The position numbers and the translations under genes are program-made. Source: a virus. Taken from it: a DNA stretch of 25,419 nt. The notes under the pieces are model-generated. The model was not told the origin of the DNA and did no database searches. It saw only the letters and a list, made by a program, of their open reading frames with translations. Positions 3,464 through 25,184 of this stretch are shown piece by piece (positions within the stretch are counted from its first letter, which is position 1; each line of letters starts with the position of its first letter). The stretch is taken from IMG/VR virus record IMGVR_UViG_3300035670_000091, one strand, 5' to 3'.

Positions 3464-3506
3464 GCCCCCATGCCTTGGCTCACGCTAGGGTATGGGGGCT
3501 TTTTTT
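3464..3506 (+). terminator. intrinsic terminator between the HTH gene and the integrase
   Basis: 16-bp stem (3 G-U pairs) 3464-3479/3484-3499 followed by T7. Confidence 0.85.
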
Positions 3507-3522
3507 ATTTCTAGGAGGATTC

Positions 3523-4638
3523 ATGGCCTATGTAACACAGCGAGGTAACCGATTCACTGGTTACTACCGAGACAATCGAGGTAAGAAATACAGCGCAGGA
3601 ACCTTTGACACCAGAGCCGAAGCATTGGCTCATGCAGAGCGAGCAGAGCAGGCAGGCGGAGAAGGCCAGTATCGCCTCACCATGCCGTTGAGCGAGTATG
3701 TCGAAACATGGGTGAAGACTGCCGACCTTCTTCCGCTCACCAAAAAGAACTACCTTTTCACTCTACGGGCTCATGTGTTGCCGTATCTTGGGAAGAAGCC
3801 TGTCGGACAAATCTCTCGTGCAGATGTCCGACAGATGTTGGACAGCTTGCGTATAGCTGGTAAATCGGCTGCGCTCCGCCGCCAAGCAAAAGCTTCGCTG
3901 GGCTCAGCGTTGCAGGAGTTGGTCGAGCTGGACCAGCTAGACATCAACCCAACCCACAAGATAAGCATCAAGTCTGTCCAAGAGACAGCCGTCAGGGACA
4001 TCATCAGTCCGACAGAGTTCAAACAAGTCATTCAATCGTTGCCGACTCCTGGCGCTCAGTTGTTTGCACAGACGCTCATAGCGACAGGACTACGCTTCGG
4101 AGAGGCCACTGAGCTACGTGTAAAGGACTTCAATCCGTCAACGCAAGAGCTATACGTCCAACGCAGAGTGACAGAGCTCGGTGCGCAGAACAATAACGGG
4201 GAACGGTTCCAAGTTATTGCGGGCACCAAGTCGGGTCGCAGAAGAATTGTGACTGTCAGTGTCGAGCTGGCCAAGCTTCTACAGGACCACATCAAAACTC
4301 TCGATGGATTCCCCGACACCCTGCTGTTCAGCAAAGCCACGACTCTCCCGCAACAAACCTTGCTGGCCCGCTCCTCTAGCAACTTCAGCGGTCACCTGCC
4401 GAAGGACTCATGGCGCAGGATGTGGAAGACAGCAGTCCAAAAGGCTGGGTTAGATTGGCTACCACGCACACACGACCTTCGTCATGCTAATGCCACAACA
4501 CTGTTGAAAAACGGAGTGGACCTGCACGAGGTGAAAGAACGACTAGGCCACAGTTCCATAAGGACTACTGAGGTCTATCTTCACAGACTGAAGCATCAAC
4601 AAAGCAAAGCTTCGCAAGCCGTAGCTGAATTCCTATAA
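3523..4638 (+). CDS. int: tyrosine integrase/recombinase
   Basis: AGGAGG RBS before ATG 3523; catalytic R (TGLRFGE), K (GTKSG), HDLRH, LGH and Y (TTEVY). Confidence 0.95.
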   Translation: MAYVTQRGNRFTGYYRDNRGKKYSAGTFDTRAEALAHAERAEQAGGEGQYRLTMPLSEYVETWVKTADLLPLTKKNYLFTLRAHVLPYLGKKPVGQISRADVRQMLDSLRIAGKSAALRRQAKASLGSALQELVELDQLDINPTHKISIKSVQETAVRDIISPTEFKQVIQSLPTPGAQLFAQTLIATGLRFGEATELRVKDFNPSTQELYVQRRVTELGAQNNNGERFQVIAGTKSGRRRIVTVSVELAKLLQDHIKTLDGFPDTLLFSKATTLPQQTLLARSSSNFSGHLPKDSWRRMWKTAVQKAGLDWLPRTHDLRHANATTLLKNGVDLHEVKERLGHSSIRTTEVYLHRLKHQQSKASQAVAEFL

Positions 4639-4683
4639 AAGGAAGAAGGCCCTTCAGCCAAGGGGGGAGCTGAAGGGCCTTCT
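4634..4683 (-). terminator. terminator hairpin between convergent arms
   Basis: Perfect 15-bp inverted repeat 4644-4658/4669-4683, followed on the - strand by TCCTTTTAT. Confidence 0.85.
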
Positions 4684-4733
4684 CGCTTATAGCGATTGAA
4701 TGAAAGGAGCTTACAACACCACTGTTGGAAGCT
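4637..4733 (-). ncRNA. predicted small regulatory RNA with an anti-Shine-Dalgarno seed
   Basis: Upstream promoter match, 5' hairpin, unpaired CCUUUCAUUCAA, small hairpin, terminator with a C-rich loop; no convincing ORF. Confidence 0.6.
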
Positions 4734-4738
4734 TGATT

Positions 4739-4773
4739 AGCTTAGCACTGAAATTTTAGAAAGTGCAAGACAC
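4739..4773 (-). promoter_or_regulatory. sigma70/SigA-like promoter with adjacent GACAC box
   Basis: - strand reads GTGTC-TTGCAC-N18-TAAGCT, with TGn extended -10. Confidence 0.6.
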
Positions 4774-4825: not shown

Positions 4826-5496
4826 CTGTTATCAGATACTTAGTCTTCGATGGAAGTGCGAATTATCTGGGTAGTTTCAGACTCAGAAATAGGGTTTTGC
4901 ATCTCCCTCAAAGCCGATGCTCGGTCACCAAAAATAGCTGAAAGAACCCCTCCAGAGGTCTGTCTTTCGGCAGTGATTCTGATGAACTCTTTGTTCTCTT
5001 CTAGCTCCTTCAAAGACTTCACAAGCTTGAACAATCTGTCCACTTCTTGAGACACATTTGGGTCTGCGTAACCACCATTCATTTCCTCAGCAAACCGCAT
5101 GAATGCCACTCTTTGCCCCTGCATTTCAATGATTGCGGTCAATAGAGCCTTGAGCTGTTCCTTAGTTTTTACTTCCACTGGGAGGTTGAATGCACACTCA
5201 TTGTCTGGCTTGAAAGCGGGGCAGTTTGATGCCACAAAACAGGTGTTGCACTGCCTCAAAGACGACATGTTTGACTGCACAATCGGGACTTCCCGAAGCA
5301 CGTCCCGACCATCATCATCGGTCTCAACTATGGTCTTAGTTTTATACCCAAAAACAGGCATTGGAGCCCTGTCAGAGGGGTCTCTTTTGACTACTTCTGT
5401 GGGTCCTGACTTCCGCACTTCAACATCGCTGTTATCAGAAGACCCTAGGTCTAAATCCATCAAACCTGTGTATAGGGTGTCATCGCTGTTATCAGA
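4826..5496. repeat. three direct copies of CTGTTATCAGA
   Basis: Copies at 4826-4836, 5429-5439 and 5486-5496; the last two share 16 bp (CATCGCTGTTATCAGA). Confidence 0.75.
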
Positions 5497-6351
5497 TAGC
5501 ATGTCCTCGATAGAAGGCAATCCACCTTGAATAACTCGTAGCTCAGGCTTCTCTTTGTCCATCTTTGCCTCTAACTGTCGGTAGGACCAGATAGCTACCT
5601 TTGTAGCCTCTAGCGTGTCATCGGATACAAACTTATCGAAATCAAACCCGTTTTTCTCTAACAACGCCTTGTAGCGCTTGCGGGCTTGGTCTTTCATCTT
5701 CTTCGGATAACGGTTCAGCTTGGTGCCATCCCATACGATGGTCTCACCCCGACGCATGGGCGAAATCCAAGCCAGGGTCGATACGTAGTCAAACGGTATC
5801 TGACGGAGGTTATCTGGCTTTGCATACGACAGCGCCATCCATCGGGTGTCCGACACACTCTTCAGCGGCCGAATCGCCGCCGCCAAGTTGGGCACGGCAT
5901 CAACCGTGCTTCCTGGAATGCCGATGTTGACGTATTCTTCTGCCCAACGGCGAAGTAGCGGAACTCCGTAGGACTCATGCCAGACGACCCACATCTTCGG
6001 GTCGTTCAAGAATGCAGCTCTGTTCTGCTGAATCTTTGGTAGGCCCCACTTCTGAGAGTCAAACTCAAGCCAACCTTCGATGCGGTCGTAGTTGAGAGCT
6101 ACAAACTCCTCGTAGTCAGCAGCGTATTCTTCAATCTCTCGGTCACTCATCTCTGATGAGTCCACTTGAGATGCACCAGAGTCTACCCAGACTTTCATGT
6201 CTGAGAAGAAGTGCTCACCAATCAAGTAAGGCTTTGTCTTGGGTAGGCCACGCTTACGTAAGCCCCAGTAATTGAGCATGACGGACGTAACGCCATTACG
6301 CTCTAACAGAGTCCTGTTGGACGGAATCTCTACTCCACCGAAGATAATCAT
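4840..6351 (-). CDS. TGT (tRNA-guanine transglycosylase)-like domain fused to a Cys4/helical C-terminal domain
   Basis: VWVDSGA, VVWH and PFDYVSTLAW follow the order of motifs in phage TGT-like proteins; acidic linker; C-x2-C-x5-C-x8-C cluster. Confidence 0.5.
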   Translation of the reverse strand: MIIFGGVEIPSNRTLLERNGVTSVMLNYWGLRKRGLPKTKPYLIGEHFFSDMKVWVDSGASQVDSSEMSDREIEEYAADYEEFVALNYDRIEGWLEFDSQKWGLPKIQQNRAAFLNDPKMWVVWHESYGVPLLRRWAEEYVNIGIPGSTVDAVPNLAAAIRPLKSVSDTRWMALSYAKPDNLRQIPFDYVSTLAWISPMRRGETIVWDGTKLNRYPKKMKDQARKRYKALLEKNGFDFDKFVSDDTLEATKVAIWSYRQLEAKMDKEKPELRVIQGGLPSIEDMLSDNSDDTLYTGLMDLDLGSSDNSDVEVRKSGPTEVVKRDPSDRAPMPVFGYKTKTIVETDDDGRDVLREVPIVQSNMSSLRQCNTCFVASNCPAFKPDNECAFNLPVEVKTKEQLKALLTAIIEMQGQRVAFMRFAEEMNGGYADPNVSQEVDRLFKLVKSLKELEENKEFIRITAERQTSGGVLSAIFGDRASALREMQNPISESETTQIIRTSIED

Positions 6352-6833
6352 TCGAAGCGGAATCCCTCATGCTTTGAAATGCGACGGTCTTGAGTTCGTA
6401 GAGCATTTTGCTTTGCTACAGCCTCTTCGATGTCGGTCCATGCTCTAAGTTTACGGGGAGCATCAGGTCTGAACTCTGCACGAGTGTACGAAGGGACGCC
6501 AAACATAACTGAAGGAATCCCCATCTCAAAGGCATAAGCCCAGTGCTTGGGGTTGTTAGTGATGAACAGCTCTATACCGCCGAGGCTGCGGGCATGGTTT
6601 ATCTGACGTTTTACAGGCTCTTCATCCGTCAGATAGACGCTAGAGTCAATGATTTTGTCGAAGTCAACAACCTTGTTCTCATTCATCCATCGGATAGCTT
6701 CCGCTTCCTTCATGTCAGTGATGATGGTGACTCGGTTGTAAGCAGCTAAAGCCGCATACATCAGAACGCCTGTGATTATTGGCTTGTCTGAGTCGCTTTT
6801 TAGTACACCGTTTAGTTCTACGAGTATTTCCAT
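6348..6833 (-). CDS. HAD-superfamily-like protein with degenerate motif I
   Basis: ILVELNGVL in place of hhhDxDGVL; VTIIT (motif II-like); LFITNN in place of the DD motif. Confidence 0.55.
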   Translation of the reverse strand: MEILVELNGVLKSDSDKPIITGVLMYAALAAYNRVTIITDMKEAEAIRWMNENKVVDFDKIIDSSVYLTDEEPVKRQINHARSLGGIELFITNNPKHWAYAFEMGIPSVMFGVPSYTRAEFRPDAPRKLRAWTDIEEAVAKQNALRTQDRRISKHEGFRFE

Positions 6834-6836
6834 AAA

Positions 6837-7742
6837 TTATCCAGCTCTGTAAGTAGCTGCCCTTCTAACCAATGTGTCTGTATCAGGCAACGATACGCCA
6901 TAAGTAGAGACATCTACGGATGTCTTACGGCTGTCTGCGTGCTCTTTTAGCTTACGTAGCAGTGGCACAGCTCCTGAAGCTTTTGCGGACTGCCAGCGGT
7001 AGTTGTGGAAGTCTGAGTAGCCTTCGCCTGTAGGACCAAAAGCCTCTCTTCTTCCTGAATGAATCTCGTCAAACAAAGCGACACCTTGCTCCAGAGCGGA
7101 CTGCACTCTAACTTCAGCATTACGGCGCATCGCATCGTTGCGAGAAGCGCTCATGTCTTGAACTGCGGCAGTAAAGCGGGTGTGGATTTGTTTGGCGAGC
7201 TTTGAGTCATTCTCTGCCACAGTGTCCCAAAGCAAGTTTTTAGGAGCAACTTGTGCAGGGTCAGGGTAAACCGTCCATTCGTCATACTTGAGGTCGTATG
7301 CAGCGTATGGCTTGATACTACGAATGTCCGTAGCGCCTGGATTTACATAGAAAGTTAGCTCAAAGCCATTCCAGTTGGAGGTTTGAGGGTGAAGACCATT
7401 GTAAAACTGCTCGTTGATAGTAGAGCTAATCTCTTTGTCAGATAAGCCCATGTATTCAGGGTTAGCTTTGCGGAACTGCTCGTAATCTACACCAACAAGA
7501 CAGTCTAGGTCTCCTGGCTCACGAGCTGCCTGCCATTGGTAAGAAACGCCAGAGCCAGCCAGCCATGGGTGTGCCCACAGGTCTGAATGGCGATAAAAGT
7601 GGCTTAGAAAGTCATGTAGAAGCCGAGTGATGCCCTGACGGACCCAGCCCTTGAGGGCACGTCCCTCAAAGAGCTTTGGGTCTAACGTCGGCGCTGGTGC
7701 GCTGAAGTACGAAGTAGGGTTGAGCGCACCAAAATCAGCCAT
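6837..7742 (-). CDS. Pol beta-superfamily nucleotidyltransferase
   Basis: LAGSGVSY...GDLDCLV (hGS...DxD) plus a downstream ELTFYV strand carrying a candidate third acidic residue. Confidence 0.75.
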   Translation of the reverse strand: MADFGALNPTSYFSAPAPTLDPKLFEGRALKGWVRQGITRLLHDFLSHFYRHSDLWAHPWLAGSGVSYQWQAAREPGDLDCLVGVDYEQFRKANPEYMGLSDKEISSTINEQFYNGLHPQTSNWNGFELTFYVNPGATDIRSIKPYAAYDLKYDEWTVYPDPAQVAPKNLLWDTVAENDSKLAKQIHTRFTAAVQDMSASRNDAMRRNAEVRVQSALEQGVALFDEIHSGRREAFGPTGEGYSDFHNYRWQSAKASGAVPLLRKLKEHADSRKTSVDVSTYGVSLPDTDTLVRRAATYRAG

Positions 7743-7778
7743 GCAACTAGTTTAGAGAAGTTACATGGCCGTGTCTTG
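7743..7778 (-). promoter_or_regulatory. probable leaderless promoter with GACAC box
   Basis: - strand reads CAAGACAC-N16-TAAACT-N6-ATG; no SD sequence before the ATG. Confidence 0.55.
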
Positions 7779-7792
7779 GTATGTGTAACGGA

Positions 7793-8074
7793 TTACTCTC
7801 CGTCAGGAACGATGCCACGCTCACGTAGAGCATCCTTCATGAGGTCCTGAACCTTCGGCTGTGCAGGGGCGAGGTAGTTGACTACAGTTCTAGCTACTCT
7901 GTCAGCAAGAATCTGAGCCTCAAACTCGTCCACAATCTGCTTGCACAGCTCGTAGAGCATGTAGTTGTTACCCTGCTCCACACGCTCAGGCAAGGTCTCT
8001 GGCACATCAGCCATAGTGCCGATAGTGCCGTCCTCGTTAGCGGTGAGGAAGAAATAAGTCTTTACTTTGTCCAT
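7793..8074 (-). CDS. hypothetical protein
   Basis: TAATG coupling with upstream gene. Confidence 0.75.
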   Translation of the reverse strand: MDKVKTYFFLTANEDGTIGTMADVPETLPERVEQGNNYMLYELCKQIVDEFEAQILADRVARTVVNYLAPAQPKVQDLMKDALRERGIVPDGE

Positions 8075-8637
8075 TAGTCGTACATTCCCATCAATGAGCG
8101 TCGTTTTTGAGTGATAACTGAGTGCATAGGGCAGAAGTTACACAGGTAAATCTTAGGCATACCTGGGGCGTTCTTAGGGTCAGGCAAGCCGAGGTCTTTG
8201 CGCTCTGCTGCGGTCTTTGGTAGAAGACGCTTCTGCTCTGACTGATAGTCGTCACAGTGGTCAGCTGGGCGGAGGTGATACTTGTAGCACTGCATAGCAT
8301 CTTCTGCGAACTGCATCTTAGTGCTGTAGTAGTTGCCTTCTGGGGTCATAGCGTCAAGACCTGACGAGCCTCCACCAGTAAGCTGCTTGATAATCTCTTT
8401 CTGGTGCGCTTGGTTAGCCCAGGTTTTTACAGGGAGAATAAACAACTTGCCCTTGTGACGTTCACCTGACGGATACTCATGCTTTTCAGCAGTCATCTCC
8501 AGAAGCAGGTCAGTCTCTGGTGGGCCATCATGTGGGGGAAGCTCGTCAATCGTCTTGCACTCTAGGCAAACTAGAAGACGGATAACTGGTCCGTCGTGAT
8601 TGAGCTCCCGCTTACCAATTAGCGGTGCTTCAGCCAT
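8074..8637 (-). CDS. Cys/His-rich putative zinc-binding protein
   Basis: CLEC, C-x2-H...C and CNFC motifs; abuts neighbouring genes. Confidence 0.75.
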   Translation of the reverse strand: MAEAPLIGKRELNHDGPVIRLLVCLECKTIDELPPHDGPPETDLLLEMTAEKHEYPSGERHKGKLFILPVKTWANQAHQKEIIKQLTGGGSSGLDAMTPEGNYYSTKMQFAEDAMQCYKYHLRPADHCDDYQSEQKRLLPKTAAERKDLGLPDPKNAPGMPKIYLCNFCPMHSVITQKRRSLMGMYD

Positions 8638-9627: not shown

Positions 9628-9799
9628 TTTTACTCTCCTGTATGGATTGGTGCAGAGCTGCTGCTCTGGTTCTAACTCTCTTTGTTCTTTTATCTAGATG
9701 AGTACCCGCTGCATTGCTTTGGCGAATCTGTCTCATCCCCTGTATGTAGGCAGGATTTGCCGACTTGTAGGACTTCTGTCCGTTAGCCTTTTGCGCCAT
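9620..9799 (-). CDS. small basic protein
   Basis: ATG 9799 chosen for its shorter overlap; Arg/Lys-rich SNAAGTHLDKRTKRVRTR. Confidence 0.6.
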   Translation of the reverse strand: MAQKANGQKSYKSANPAYIQGMRQIRQSNAAGTHLDKRTKRVRTRAAALHQSIQESKNV

Positions 9800-10385
9800 T
9801 GTGACCTGCCATAAATGACCCAAGTCTGTTCATAGCTTTCCTGATTGGAGCCGTGCGCTGCTCTCCGATGCGCTGTGCTTTAGCCATCTGGAAGTCGTAG
9901 TCATCGTTGTATCCTTCAGTGCCCTCTACAGGGCCACCTGCAGTCTTGCCGCCAAGAGCCTGATAGGTAACGTCCTTGCGGCCCATCTTCTTGGTGCTCC
10001 ATCCAGCAGGCTTGTAGTCATCGTTCCACTTAGTCTTGCCAGTGGTCTGTGCTCCTGCCTTGTTGTACGCAATCTGTGGCAATGGGTCAAACGCTGACAA
10101 GTGAGTAGCTCCTGCCATCAAAACAGCGTGCTCAGCAGCTCTTTGTCCTACGTTTTCATACGGAGCGTCAGGGTGCTTGAACACGCTGGTCAACTCTCCC
10201 GAAGGCTTCACTGCGTATCCTGCTTTACCATCGTTAGTCAGGTACATCTTCATACCCTTGTAGTCCGACAGTTTGTGGATGTCTACTGCTGCGCCTTTTG
10301 GATTGGCTTTCTTTGCCTCAGAAATGCGCATGCGGAAGATGTTGGCCTCACTCGAAGCCAACTCAGTAAAGTGAGGAAAAGTCAT
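9783..10385 (-). CDS. GNAT-like fold protein
   Basis: DGKAGYAVKPSGELTSVF...GATHLSAFD...Y..AG...WNDDYKPAGW resembles GNAT-like domains of phage polyvalent proteins. Confidence 0.5.
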   Translation of the reverse strand: MTFPHFTELASSEANIFRMRISEAKKANPKGAAVDIHKLSDYKGMKMYLTNDGKAGYAVKPSGELTSVFKHPDAPYENVGQRAAEHAVLMAGATHLSAFDPLPQIAYNKAGAQTTGKTKWNDDYKPAGWSTKKMGRKDVTYQALGGKTAGGPVEGTEGYNDDYDFQMAKAQRIGEQRTAPIRKAMNRLGSFMAGHNGAKG

Positions 10386-13719: not shown

Positions 13720-14010
13720 CTAGCTTGCTGTAATGGCAAACATAATGGCGCTAATCTCGCCGTCACGGGACTCAATTGTGGTAAACCCAGGCTTACAAGT
13801 AAGGTCTAGGCCACGAGGAGCCACGTATCCACGAGCGATTGCGATTGCTTTAACGGCCTGATTTACAGCGCCTGCACCAACGGCACGGAGCTTTACCTGA
13901 CGGTTCTCATAGACAGCGTGGGCAATTGCTGATGCTACAGATTGTGGGTTAGAGCTAGCGGATACCCGCAGAAATGACTCTTCATTATTGCTGAGGACTT
14001 CTTCTGTCAC
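13720..14010 (-). CDS. spoVS: SpoVS-family (Alba-like fold) protein
   Basis: LRVSASSNPQSVASAIA...AVGAGAVNQAVKAIAIARGYVAP.G.DL...PGF is the SpoVS signature. Confidence 0.92.
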   Translation of the reverse strand: MTEEVLSNNEESFLRVSASSNPQSVASAIAHAVYENRQVKLRAVGAGAVNQAVKAIAIARGYVAPRGLDLTCKPGFTTIESRDGEISAIMFAITAS

Positions 14011-23618: not shown

Positions 23619-25184
23619 CTAAAACATTTTAGTGGTTAGGAAATCTATCAAACTTCCTACAGTCAAATCAACTCCACCCTTGGAGTTTATACCCTCTCCA
23701 TCCAAAATAGCATCAGCTATGTTGGACTTTTGTTTCAGCGTGTCGTACTGACGCTGTTCGATGGAGTCTTTAACAAGAATGTCTTGAATCGTAATAGTGG
23801 GCCATGTACTGGACGCACGATTGATACGACTGTTCCGCTGAACGGCAAGGCCTGCTGACCAAGGTTGGTCATAGTTGAGCAAGAGGTTCGCTTGGGGAAG
23901 GTCAACACCGTATCCTCCTGCATCTGAGCTGACGAGTACTCTGACCTTTGGGTCTGTCTGGAACGCAACTTTTGCCTCCTCTTTTTGCTTTGCATTCATT
24001 TCGCCTGTGTAAGGCCTTGCGTCGTAGCCACCTGCAGCCAGAGCTTGGACTATCTCTTCTACGGACAAAATGTAGGACGAAAAGACGACAGCCTTATACG
24101 ATGGGTCAATATCTAGGTGGTCCGACAGGTATCTGACAGCCACGTCTAACTTAGGTTTTTTATTCAGTGTCGGCAGAACGTCCGACAGTGAATGTATGTA
24201 GGAGCTACCGCCGACACCGCTATCAAAGGCATTAGCGCTCTTTTGTAGTAGTGCTGGGTTTGAGCAAAGCATACGCATAGCAGTAATCCTGGACATTACC
24301 TGCCCACGCAGTTCGTTAGCTGGGTCTCCAGGCTGATATGTCTGACCATAGTGGGCAGCTAGATTGAAGTTTGCTCCTAGGCTGTTTCTAGCCTCGAGCA
24401 ATAACTCATATAGGTCTTTGGCAATCTGGTCATACACCAGCTTGCCTGGCTTATCCATCGGCACCAAAATAGGCTCTCGGTAGATAGCGTCAGGCAAATA
24501 AGGGCGAACATCTTCATCAGTTTGAGACTTTCTAACTGAGTTAGCGACCAGAGTCCTATGTAGTAGCTCTAGGTTGCGGTATCGCTGAACGCCCCCAAAG
24601 TGGTTACGGACGATGAAGGTCTTGTCAAATAGGTCGAACCTACCCAATACTTTTGAGTCTACAAACTGCATGATGCTGTAAATCTCTTCGGGTCTTCCGT
24701 TTTCCACAGGGGTGCCTGTTAAGGCAAACCTAATAGGAATGTTTTTAGCAAGCTCTTTGACCTTCTTAGCACGCTTAGCTTTAAACCCTTTTATAGCGGT
24801 AGCTTCGTCGCAAATGATTGCTTCAAACGGAATCTGCTTGACTATCTCCCAGTCGTTAACTACTTGCTCGTAATTCATGATTACGTACATGTTGTCGCCC
24901 ATGTTTTTGTACTGTTCCTGGCGTTGCTTCGGGGTGCCGTCAATAACTAGCGCTGTCCAGTTGGTGAATTTAGCGACTTCTTTTTGCCACTGATACTTGA
25001 GAGATGCTAGGCAAAGAACTAGAGTGACAGAAGATAAATTGCCTTTGTTTCTCAGCTCTTCGATAGCAGCGATTGTCATAGGAGTCTTACCTAAGCCCAT
25101 TTCGTATGCGACAAGCACTTGCTTCTTGCGCACCATCTTGGCTACCGCATCTACTTGGTAGGGCTTTAGTTCTCCTTTAAACAT
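23619..25184 (-). CDS. SNF2-family SF2 helicase
   Basis: LKPYQ, EMGLGKT, DEAT, LTGTPVEN, GGYGVDL and QR.SRI.R motifs. Confidence 0.92.
   Translation of the reverse strand: MFKGELKPYQVDAVAKMVRKKQVLVAYEMGLGKTPMTIAAIEELRNKGNLSSVTLVLCLASLKYQWQKEVAKFTNWTALVIDGTPKQRQEQYKNMGDNMYVIMNYEQVVNDWEIVKQIPFEAIICDEATAIKGFKAKRAKKVKELAKNIPIRFALTGTPVENGRPEEIYSIMQFVDSKVLGRFDLFDKTFIVRNHFGGVQRYRNLELLHRTLVANSVRKSQTDEDVRPYLPDAIYREPILVPMDKPGKLVYDQIAKDLYELLLEARNSLGANFNLAAHYGQTYQPGDPANELRGQVMSRITAMRMLCSNPALLQKSANAFDSGVGGSSYIHSLSDVLPTLNKKPKLDVAVRYLSDHLDIDPSYKAVVFSSYILSVEEIVQALAAGGYDARPYTGEMNAKQKEEAKVAFQTDPKVRVLVSSDAGGYGVDLPQANLLLNYDQPWSAGLAVQRNSRINRASSTWPTITIQDILVKDSIEQRQYDTLKQKSNIADAILDGEGINSKGGVDLTVGSLIDFLTTKMF

Follow-up and report, generated by a model that had tools for sequence, protein, structure and literature searches.

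A degenerate DpdA-type barrel fused to a small-terminase-like module in a leaderless operon of BRock-like actinobacterial myoviruses

Introduction

The 25,419-nucleotide stretch of viral DNA from IMG/VR record IMGVR_UViG_3300035670_000091 (hereafter the window) carries three adjacent minus-strand genes, encoding a Pol beta-superfamily nucleotidyltransferase (NTase), a HAD-fold protein and a 503-residue protein with a TGT-like barrel. The locus raises two questions: whether the three proteins act as a single modification or anti-defence complex, as the initial annotation proposed, and what the 503-residue protein does. The window derives from a BRock-like actinobacterial myovirus, and the three genes constitute a leaderless operon of such phages but probably not one machine. 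The C-terminal domain of the 503-residue protein, left unanalysed in that annotation, points to DNA packaging. On balance, we favour the reading that this protein is a small terminase (TerS) in which a catalytically dead DpdA barrel serves as the DNA-binding part; the claim is that it works like a TerS, not that it belongs to the canonical TerS proteins. What is new here is the homology between its C-terminal module and a gene located directly upstream of the large terminase gene (TerL) in Gordonia and Tsukamurella phages. No description of a barrel-TerS-like fusion was found in the literature, with most subscription journals lying outside the search.

If correct, this reading would supply the missing TerS for a large phage family, would describe a TerS that recognizes DNA by means of an enzyme-derived barrel (a base-modification enzyme recycled as a genome-recognition part), and would open a direct route to the place and timing of deazaguanine installation by phages. 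An annotation is corrected as well: actinophage genes labelled "queuine tRNA-ribosyltransferase" or "DpdA-like" should not be taken to indicate that the DNA is modified. These ideas can be tested in phages already in culture (BRock, GiJojo, BCD7, and the Gordonia cluster CS phages).

The N-terminal barrel of the fusion protein

The fusion gene (6351-4840, minus strand) encodes three parts: a DpdA/TGT-family barrel (residues 1-274; 5530..6351), an acidic low-confidence linker (approximately residues 275-327; 5371..5529; predicted local distance difference test [pLDDT] below 50), and a TerS-like module (residues 328-503; 4840..5370) comprising a finger, a hairpin, a strand, a helix and a tail. 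The protein is matched by 833 clusters at 50% identity, the cultured members of which infect Streptomyces, Bacillus and Bacteroides. It is 34% identical to BRock gp36 and is a full-length member (E 1.2e-55) of PHROG 887, the "queuine tRNA-ribosyltransferase" family that includes BRock gp36, GiJojo gp181 and BCD7 gp21. That label implies catalysis and overlooks the C-terminal module, and the actinophage branch of the family lacks the nucleophile.

The initial annotation predicted TGT and HAD folds in the operon, and structure comparisons returned both (TGT at Z ~16, HAD at a TM-score of ~0.6). Residues 1-274 form a TGT-type TIM barrel, matching arcTGT with a Z score of 16.2 (root mean square deviation 3.7 over 260 aligned residues), Cap10 with 15.7 and DpdA (7ui4) with 15.5, while the next unrelated barrel scores 12; arcTGT, Cap10, DpdA and TGT thus match about equally (Z 15.4-16.2). 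PDB sequence searches with the operon proteins gave nothing significant, and the nucleophile was therefore mapped through phage 9g DpdA, so that its position rests on this alignment and not on a solved structure. The family profile aligns to phage 9g DpdA (96.8%, E 3.1e-10) with Ser191 (codon 5779-5781) falling on the Asp of the D-S-x-S-W motif. None of 130 diverse homologues (approximately 30-50% identity) has the nucleophilic Asp, the position being occupied by S, A, T or G. By the same alignment, the base-recognizing Asp57 of the DSG motif and the second guanine-binding residue, Asp98, are kept, as is His125; the earlier reading that DSG is present and the second catalytic Asp gone therefore stands. 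Across the 130 homologues, the DSG Asp is found in 60% and the second guanine-binding Asp in 77%, with some members lacking the motif entirely. The barrel is strongly constrained, with a dN/dS of 0.05 as against 0.33 in the linker region (residues 266-330); these and all dN/dS values below are medians over sequence pairs that are not independent.

An intact form of the barrel exists elsewhere in the family. BCD7 and five Bacteroides-phage-like loci retain the barrel Asp; in BCD7, QueD, QueE, QueC and FolE genes lie just upstream of the intact-barrel fusion, and in the Bacteroides phage BS162P1 the barrel gene has QueC and QueE-like neighbours. No QueC was found in BRock or in two complete freshwater relatives, in line with the earlier remark that preQ0 genes are absent. 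Because the barrel Asp and QueC are present or absent together across phage branches (both in BCD7 and the Bacteroides phages, neither in the actinophages tested), the loss of catalysis in the actinobacterial branch appears to have gone hand in hand with that of the preQ0 pathway. The ancestor of the barrel would then be an intact DpdA, which survives among preQ0 genes in fused form in BCD7 and as an adjacent gene in the Bacteroides phages. We tentatively propose, as a scenario with less than even support, that a DpdA enzyme was joined to a TerS, that deazaguanine insertion is tied to packaging in BCD7-like phages, and that the actinobacterial phages, having lost the nucleophile and the preQ0 pathway, kept the barrel for DNA recognition in the TerS instead of the usual helix-turn-helix. 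A second link between preQ0 and packaging genes was observed in BS162P1, in which gp17 (L127:8805-9341), a QueD, lies directly upstream of TerL and overlaps it.

The protein shares with DpdA1 of Enterobacteria phage 9g and with TGT the barrel fold, the DSG motif and the guanine-binding Asp. It differs from them in the family-wide loss of the nucleophile, in the fused C-terminal finger-hairpin, and in the lack of preQ0 genes in the actinophages tested. The five DpdA subfamilies described to date are base-inserting enzymes, and Streptomyces phages are not mentioned in that description (10.1101/2023.04.13.536721).

The C-terminal module and its link to small terminases

The C-terminal module consists of a Cys4 finger (residues 368-386), a helical hairpin (397-455), a predicted short hydrophobic strand that was deduced from sequence pattern, a helix with the motif G-G-x-L-S-x-x-F-G, and a tail. 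No other part of the fusion is as constrained (dN/dS 0.02), and the finger is present in 123 of the 130 homologues. In BS162P1 the module is a separate gene placed right after the barrel gene. A Streptomyces rimosus copy lacks the finger and keeps the hairpin, strand and tail, which marks these three elements as the core of the module. Intein-like insertions occur at three different sites in P0169, P0198 and P0217, two of them inside the Cys4 finger, and are compatible with an essential gene.

Several comparisons connect this module to terminases. In PHROGs, a match to phrog_6902 (terminase small subunit) was obtained for 32 of the 52 members, the best at E 1.4e-4, and the corresponding genes of Gordonia and Tsukamurella phages were recovered by relaxed tblastn. 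The homologues in GTE7, Woes, TIN4 and Monty, which represent four Gordonia/Tsukamurella genera, stand directly before the TerL and portal genes, and a further homologue lies upstream of a TerL on a metagenomic contig. An hhalign comparison of the module with the GTE7/Woes/Monty/TIN4 gene gave 96% and E 4.6e-9; restricted to the helical part, the comparison scores 26, with no more than 15.3 reached in 20 column shuffles, and the signal persists without the cysteines. The cysteine spacing of the finger agrees with that of the Gordonia and Tsukamurella homologues, and an acidic tail motif is shared by 44 of 130 homologues compared with 2% in shuffles. The N-terminal half of the Gordonia protein aligns in register with the barrel at a score of 18.2, which is below the shuffle maximum of 21.3. 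The putative TerS proteins of PHROG 6902 (Gordonia GTE7, GMA7 and cluster CS; Tsukamurella TIN) thus have a homologous finger, hairpin and tail, and they are of similar length to the fusion protein (465-484 residues). A leaderless -10 box at the gene start is likewise found in both the BRock/GiJojo fusion and the Gordonia group, although the PHROG 6902 gene abuts TerL and the fusion gene is remote from it.

The TerS plan consists of a hairpin, a stalk and a flexible tail (PMC9611059), and the C-terminal module matches it, with two long helices, homology, and contacts along the hairpin. Compared with canonical TerS proteins (P22, Sf6, SF6, PaP3 and T4-like), it has in common the hairpin core, stalk, flexible tail and a predicted head-to-tail oligomer, whereas the helix-turn-helix is replaced by a 270-residue barrel and the Cys4 finger. 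The same 10 INPHARED records hold this domain and a full-length GiJojo-family TerL, and in five genomes nothing else matches phrog_6902. No TerS is annotated in GiJojo, and the genes adjoining TerL in GiJojo, a further genome of the set (G001), BCD7 and BS162P1 gave no TerS-family match.

Modelling predicts that the module self-associates. A four-copy fold of the C-terminal domain gave an ipSAE interface score of 0.73 against 0.01 for the best of three controls; the corresponding mark was passed by 20 of 30 solved homo-pairs and by 1 of 23 single chains, and is only a rough guide for four copies built from a custom alignment. Separate runs share at least 81% of their contacts, and pLDDT is at least 71. 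The interface runs head-to-tail along the hairpin, and neighbouring copies use different faces in a ring-like manner, which supports self-association at the level of prediction. In the mechanism that we propose, the C-terminal hairpin and strand would form an oligomeric ring, while the dead DpdA barrel, carried on its flexible linker, would take the usual place of the helix-turn-helix and bind phage DNA, the whole working with TerL. Homology, loss of the nucleophile, purifying selection and gene order are the observations from which this mechanism is drawn, together with the predicted self-association.

A number of points weigh against a packaging role. The Gordonia TerS label is based on position upstream of TerL (PMC4524720), and no experimental test of it was found in the literature. 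The fusion gene lies tens of kb from TerL in this lineage, and the gene is remote from TerL in GiJojo, G001, BCD7 and BS162P1. In two freshwater relatives, a conserved predicted helical open reading frame (ORF) of 60-80 residues (L087:5275-5514; L085 about 24060-24310) sits directly upstream of TerL and is a rival TerS candidate; GiJojo has an unannotated counterpart recognized by eye, and none was detected in BCD7 or BS162P1. The TerL of GiJojo has no significant BLAST similarity to that of GTE7, and any core gene of a single phage family would be expected to co-occur with TerL. A typical TerS has a mass of 15-21 kDa, and the fusion protein, at approximately 57 kDa, is about three times the usual size. 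Its N-terminal domain is a TGT barrel rather than a helix-turn-helix, PDB TerS structures were not matched by sequence search, and the monomer model of the C-terminal region is of low confidence. Searching the ESM Atlas with the C-terminal part yielded low scores only, and a search for the domain standing alone returned mostly short, probably truncated proteins from small contigs.

Operon organization

The NTase ORF (301 residues; 7742-6837, minus strand) is separated by a 3-nt gap from the HAD ORF (161 residues; 6833-6348, minus strand), which in turn overlaps the fusion ORF by 4 nt (ATGA); the coupling of the three genes described in the initial annotation is thus confirmed, as is its leaderless promoter. 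A -10 hexamer, TAAACT (7749..7754, minus strand), stands 6 nt ahead of the NTase ATG. A box of the TA[AG]ACT type with the same 6-nt spacer is present in 56 of 58 relatives, with none in an intragenic control, and BRock has it likewise; 13 other genes tested from the same region of the window all lack one. A 17-bp hairpin (4643..4684, minus strand), a likely terminator, is common to the operon and the convergent integrase gene. By its conserved sequence elements, the trio reads as a single transcription unit, and the leaderless promoter is borne out by its conservation. The fusion gene has an apparent -10 box of its own in 19 of 59 cases; this count is confounded, for the box mostly consists of conserved codons at the HAD 3' end and is intergenic only in BRock and GiJojo.

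Co-occurrence of the genes was also upheld: among 80 IMG/VR loci chosen by the 503-residue protein, the HAD gene is found in 77 and the NTase gene in 73, each miss being a contig that ends too early. Gene order is held in BRock, GiJojo and most loci near 30% identity, including elements of Streptomyces, Nonomuraea and Herbidospora. The 187-residue and 93-residue genes upstream, and a SpoVS gene farther upstream, travel with the three-gene set in the IMG/VR loci, and it is transcription, rather than synteny, that distinguishes the trio from its neighbours.

Approximately 10% of loci have an extra, unrelated gene inside the unit, often ADP-ribosyltransferase-like by motif. Small genes with Arr-type ADP-ribosyltransferase-like motifs were seen between the NTase and HAD genes at L060:2029-2364, L072:7074-7511 and L081:7202-7519, and the right arm of G001 is filled with similar Arr-motif genes whose N-terminal leaders are shared. 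At L123:6561-6908, a gene of the Acb2/Tad1-hairpin type (an anti-defence sponge family), together with a 210-residue gene of vWA-like appearance, fills the NTase position, and one distant relative has a TROVE (Ro-like) gene immediately upstream of its NTase gene (L118:1-1423).

The nucleotidyltransferase and the HAD-fold protein

Neither Pfam nor PADLOC supplied a name for any of the three operon proteins. The NTase (6837..7742, minus strand) gave a confident model (pLDDT 87) with a long helical insertion at about residues 170-225. Its PDB matches are weak and mostly to nucleotidyltransferases (1ylq, Z 6.5 over residues 36-151); it matches phage NTase-domain proteins at E ~1e-8 and an NTP_transf_2 cluster at a TM-score of 0.65. 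In VIA searches with the model, most matches were to generic helical bundles (CNOT3/Not5, syntaxin) and were treated as uninformative. Residues G63, S64, D78, D80, E128, H228, R231, D244 and N247 are conserved almost without exception across 58 homologues; the G-S and D-x-D motifs reported earlier are thereby substantiated, and E128 provides the third acidic residue of the Pol beta type. With a dN/dS of 0.07, indicating purifying selection, the NTase is probably an active enzyme, judging from its sequence. Fourteen of the 58 homologues are long proteins that carry GNAT, Arr-type ADP-ribosyltransferase, 2H or ParB domains, mixtures typical of polyvalent effector proteins (PMC5512222), and the helical insertion is present in the stand-alone NTase and missing from the multidomain versions. 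By analogy with these relatives, the most likely role of the NTase is that of an active anti-host effector, which would transfer a nucleoside monophosphate to a protein or an RNA end. The Pol beta NTases of PMC5512222 come from firmicute conjugative elements, and the likeness is one of analogy, not of demonstrated membership; the NTase of the window stands alone with its helical insertion.

The 161-residue protein (6348..6833, minus strand) has a HAD Rossmannoid fold, with a TM-score of ~0.6 to HAD_PNKP/hydrolase clusters and weak support from the PDB. The initial annotation had reported an ExN in place of DxD and a lost motif IV. Motifs I and IV are indeed degenerate, but the Asn is peculiar to this copy: the second Asp of motif I is kept in 40 of 48 homologues, the first, nucleophilic Asp in only 7. 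Motifs I and IV are never both intact (0 of 34 aligned rows); where D-x-D is complete, motif IV does not carry two acidic residues, and in the clade whose motif IV is acidic the first Asp is missing. The protein is under purifying selection (dN/dS 0.10), with invariant residues concentrated in a conserved C-terminal RPD motif. From these residues it is classed as a pseudo-phosphatase, most likely a non-catalytic partner or regulator. The view that one predicted-active enzyme is accompanied by two catalytically dead proteins accordingly holds at the level of catalytic residues.

Alternative functions

The trio could still be a single modification or anti-defence complex in which the dead HAD and TGT folds read a phosphorylated or base-modified target, loosely in the manner of CdnD and Cap10. 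We consider this unlikely, with some weight on its side: promoter and terminator are common to the trio, gene order is intact in all IMG/VR loci that reach far enough upstream and in the majority of loci at about 30% identity, Cap10 is among the top fold matches of the barrel, and the helical insertion is specific to the stand-alone NTase. The 503-residue family is nevertheless wider than its partners, and synteny extends beyond the trio. The intact-barrel BCD7 and Bacteroides phages have no detectable homologue of this NTase, and a three-protein complex is therefore not ancestral; none was detected in BCD7, BS162P1 or GTE7 by a search that had no positive control there, although the family profile readily recovered homologues in other loci. 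The fusion gene of L123 has no neighbouring NTase, several genes separate the three in L117, the remaining inserts are single, and none of the 14 long NTase proteins carries a HAD domain or a barrel. Type IV CBASS (CdnD, Cap9 and Cap10) likewise encodes a Pol beta-fold NTase with a TGT-fold protein, but Cap10 requires its nucleophile D248 and its QueC partner (10.1101/2025.04.06.647259), both of which are missing here; for want of that nucleophile, the fusion barrel is not a Cap10. Assignment of the phage-encoded locus to type IV CBASS was also rejected for the lack of a QueC-like Cap9, of a Gly-rich NTase N-terminus and of any PADLOC match. Taken as a single complex of this kind, the trio as first proposed is not borne out.

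For the 503-residue protein itself, an oligomeric DNA binder with a non-packaging role, such as late transcription or genome organization, is also improbable, though not negligibly so; the Gordonia homologue would then be mislabelled. The positional origin of the TerS label, the distance of the fusion gene from TerL, the small rival ORF that adjoins TerL, and a predicted oligomer that would suit any ring or filament all speak for such a role, but homologues stand right before TerL in five lineages and the architecture is the TerS plan. A barrel that is still enzymatic, inserting a scavenged deazaguanine or excising guanine by means of another nucleophile, seems to us very improbable. Its strong purifying selection and the retention of Asp57, Asp98 and His125 in this copy would fit such an enzyme; against it, the S, A, T or G at the nucleophile position comes with no conserved acidic substitute, the DSG motif has decayed in many homologues, and QueC is missing from the genomes tested. 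A TerS-like protein with a dead barrel remains the reading that we prefer.

Phage context and neighbouring genes

The window contains WhiB-like, SpoVS-like, RuvC, RecA, Pol I and helicase genes in an order that matches the Streptomyces phages BRock and GiJojo. Close relatives are IMG/VR contigs of up to ~95 kb, and related elements also lie within Streptomyces, Nonomuraea and Herbidospora assemblies. A tyrosine integrase gene (3475-4638), convergent on the operon and found downstream in 40 related loci, suggests a temperate lifestyle. Two CAAGACAC boxes, at 4766-4773 (plus strand) and 7771-7778 (minus strand), point inward across the operon, and the box was found upstream of the NTase in none of 56 relatives. 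The 187-residue Cys/His-rich gene (8074-8637), which has no family match, is conserved at its place upstream of the NTase in almost every actinophage relative. A 200-residue gene (9783-10385) resembles, by eye, the GNAT-like domains of virion-packaged effectors and occurs in only 3 of 84 loci. In phages of Streptomyces, Bacillus and Bacteroides alike, the SpoVS-like gene (13720-14010) keeps its place upstream of the fusion gene, never more than a few kb away.

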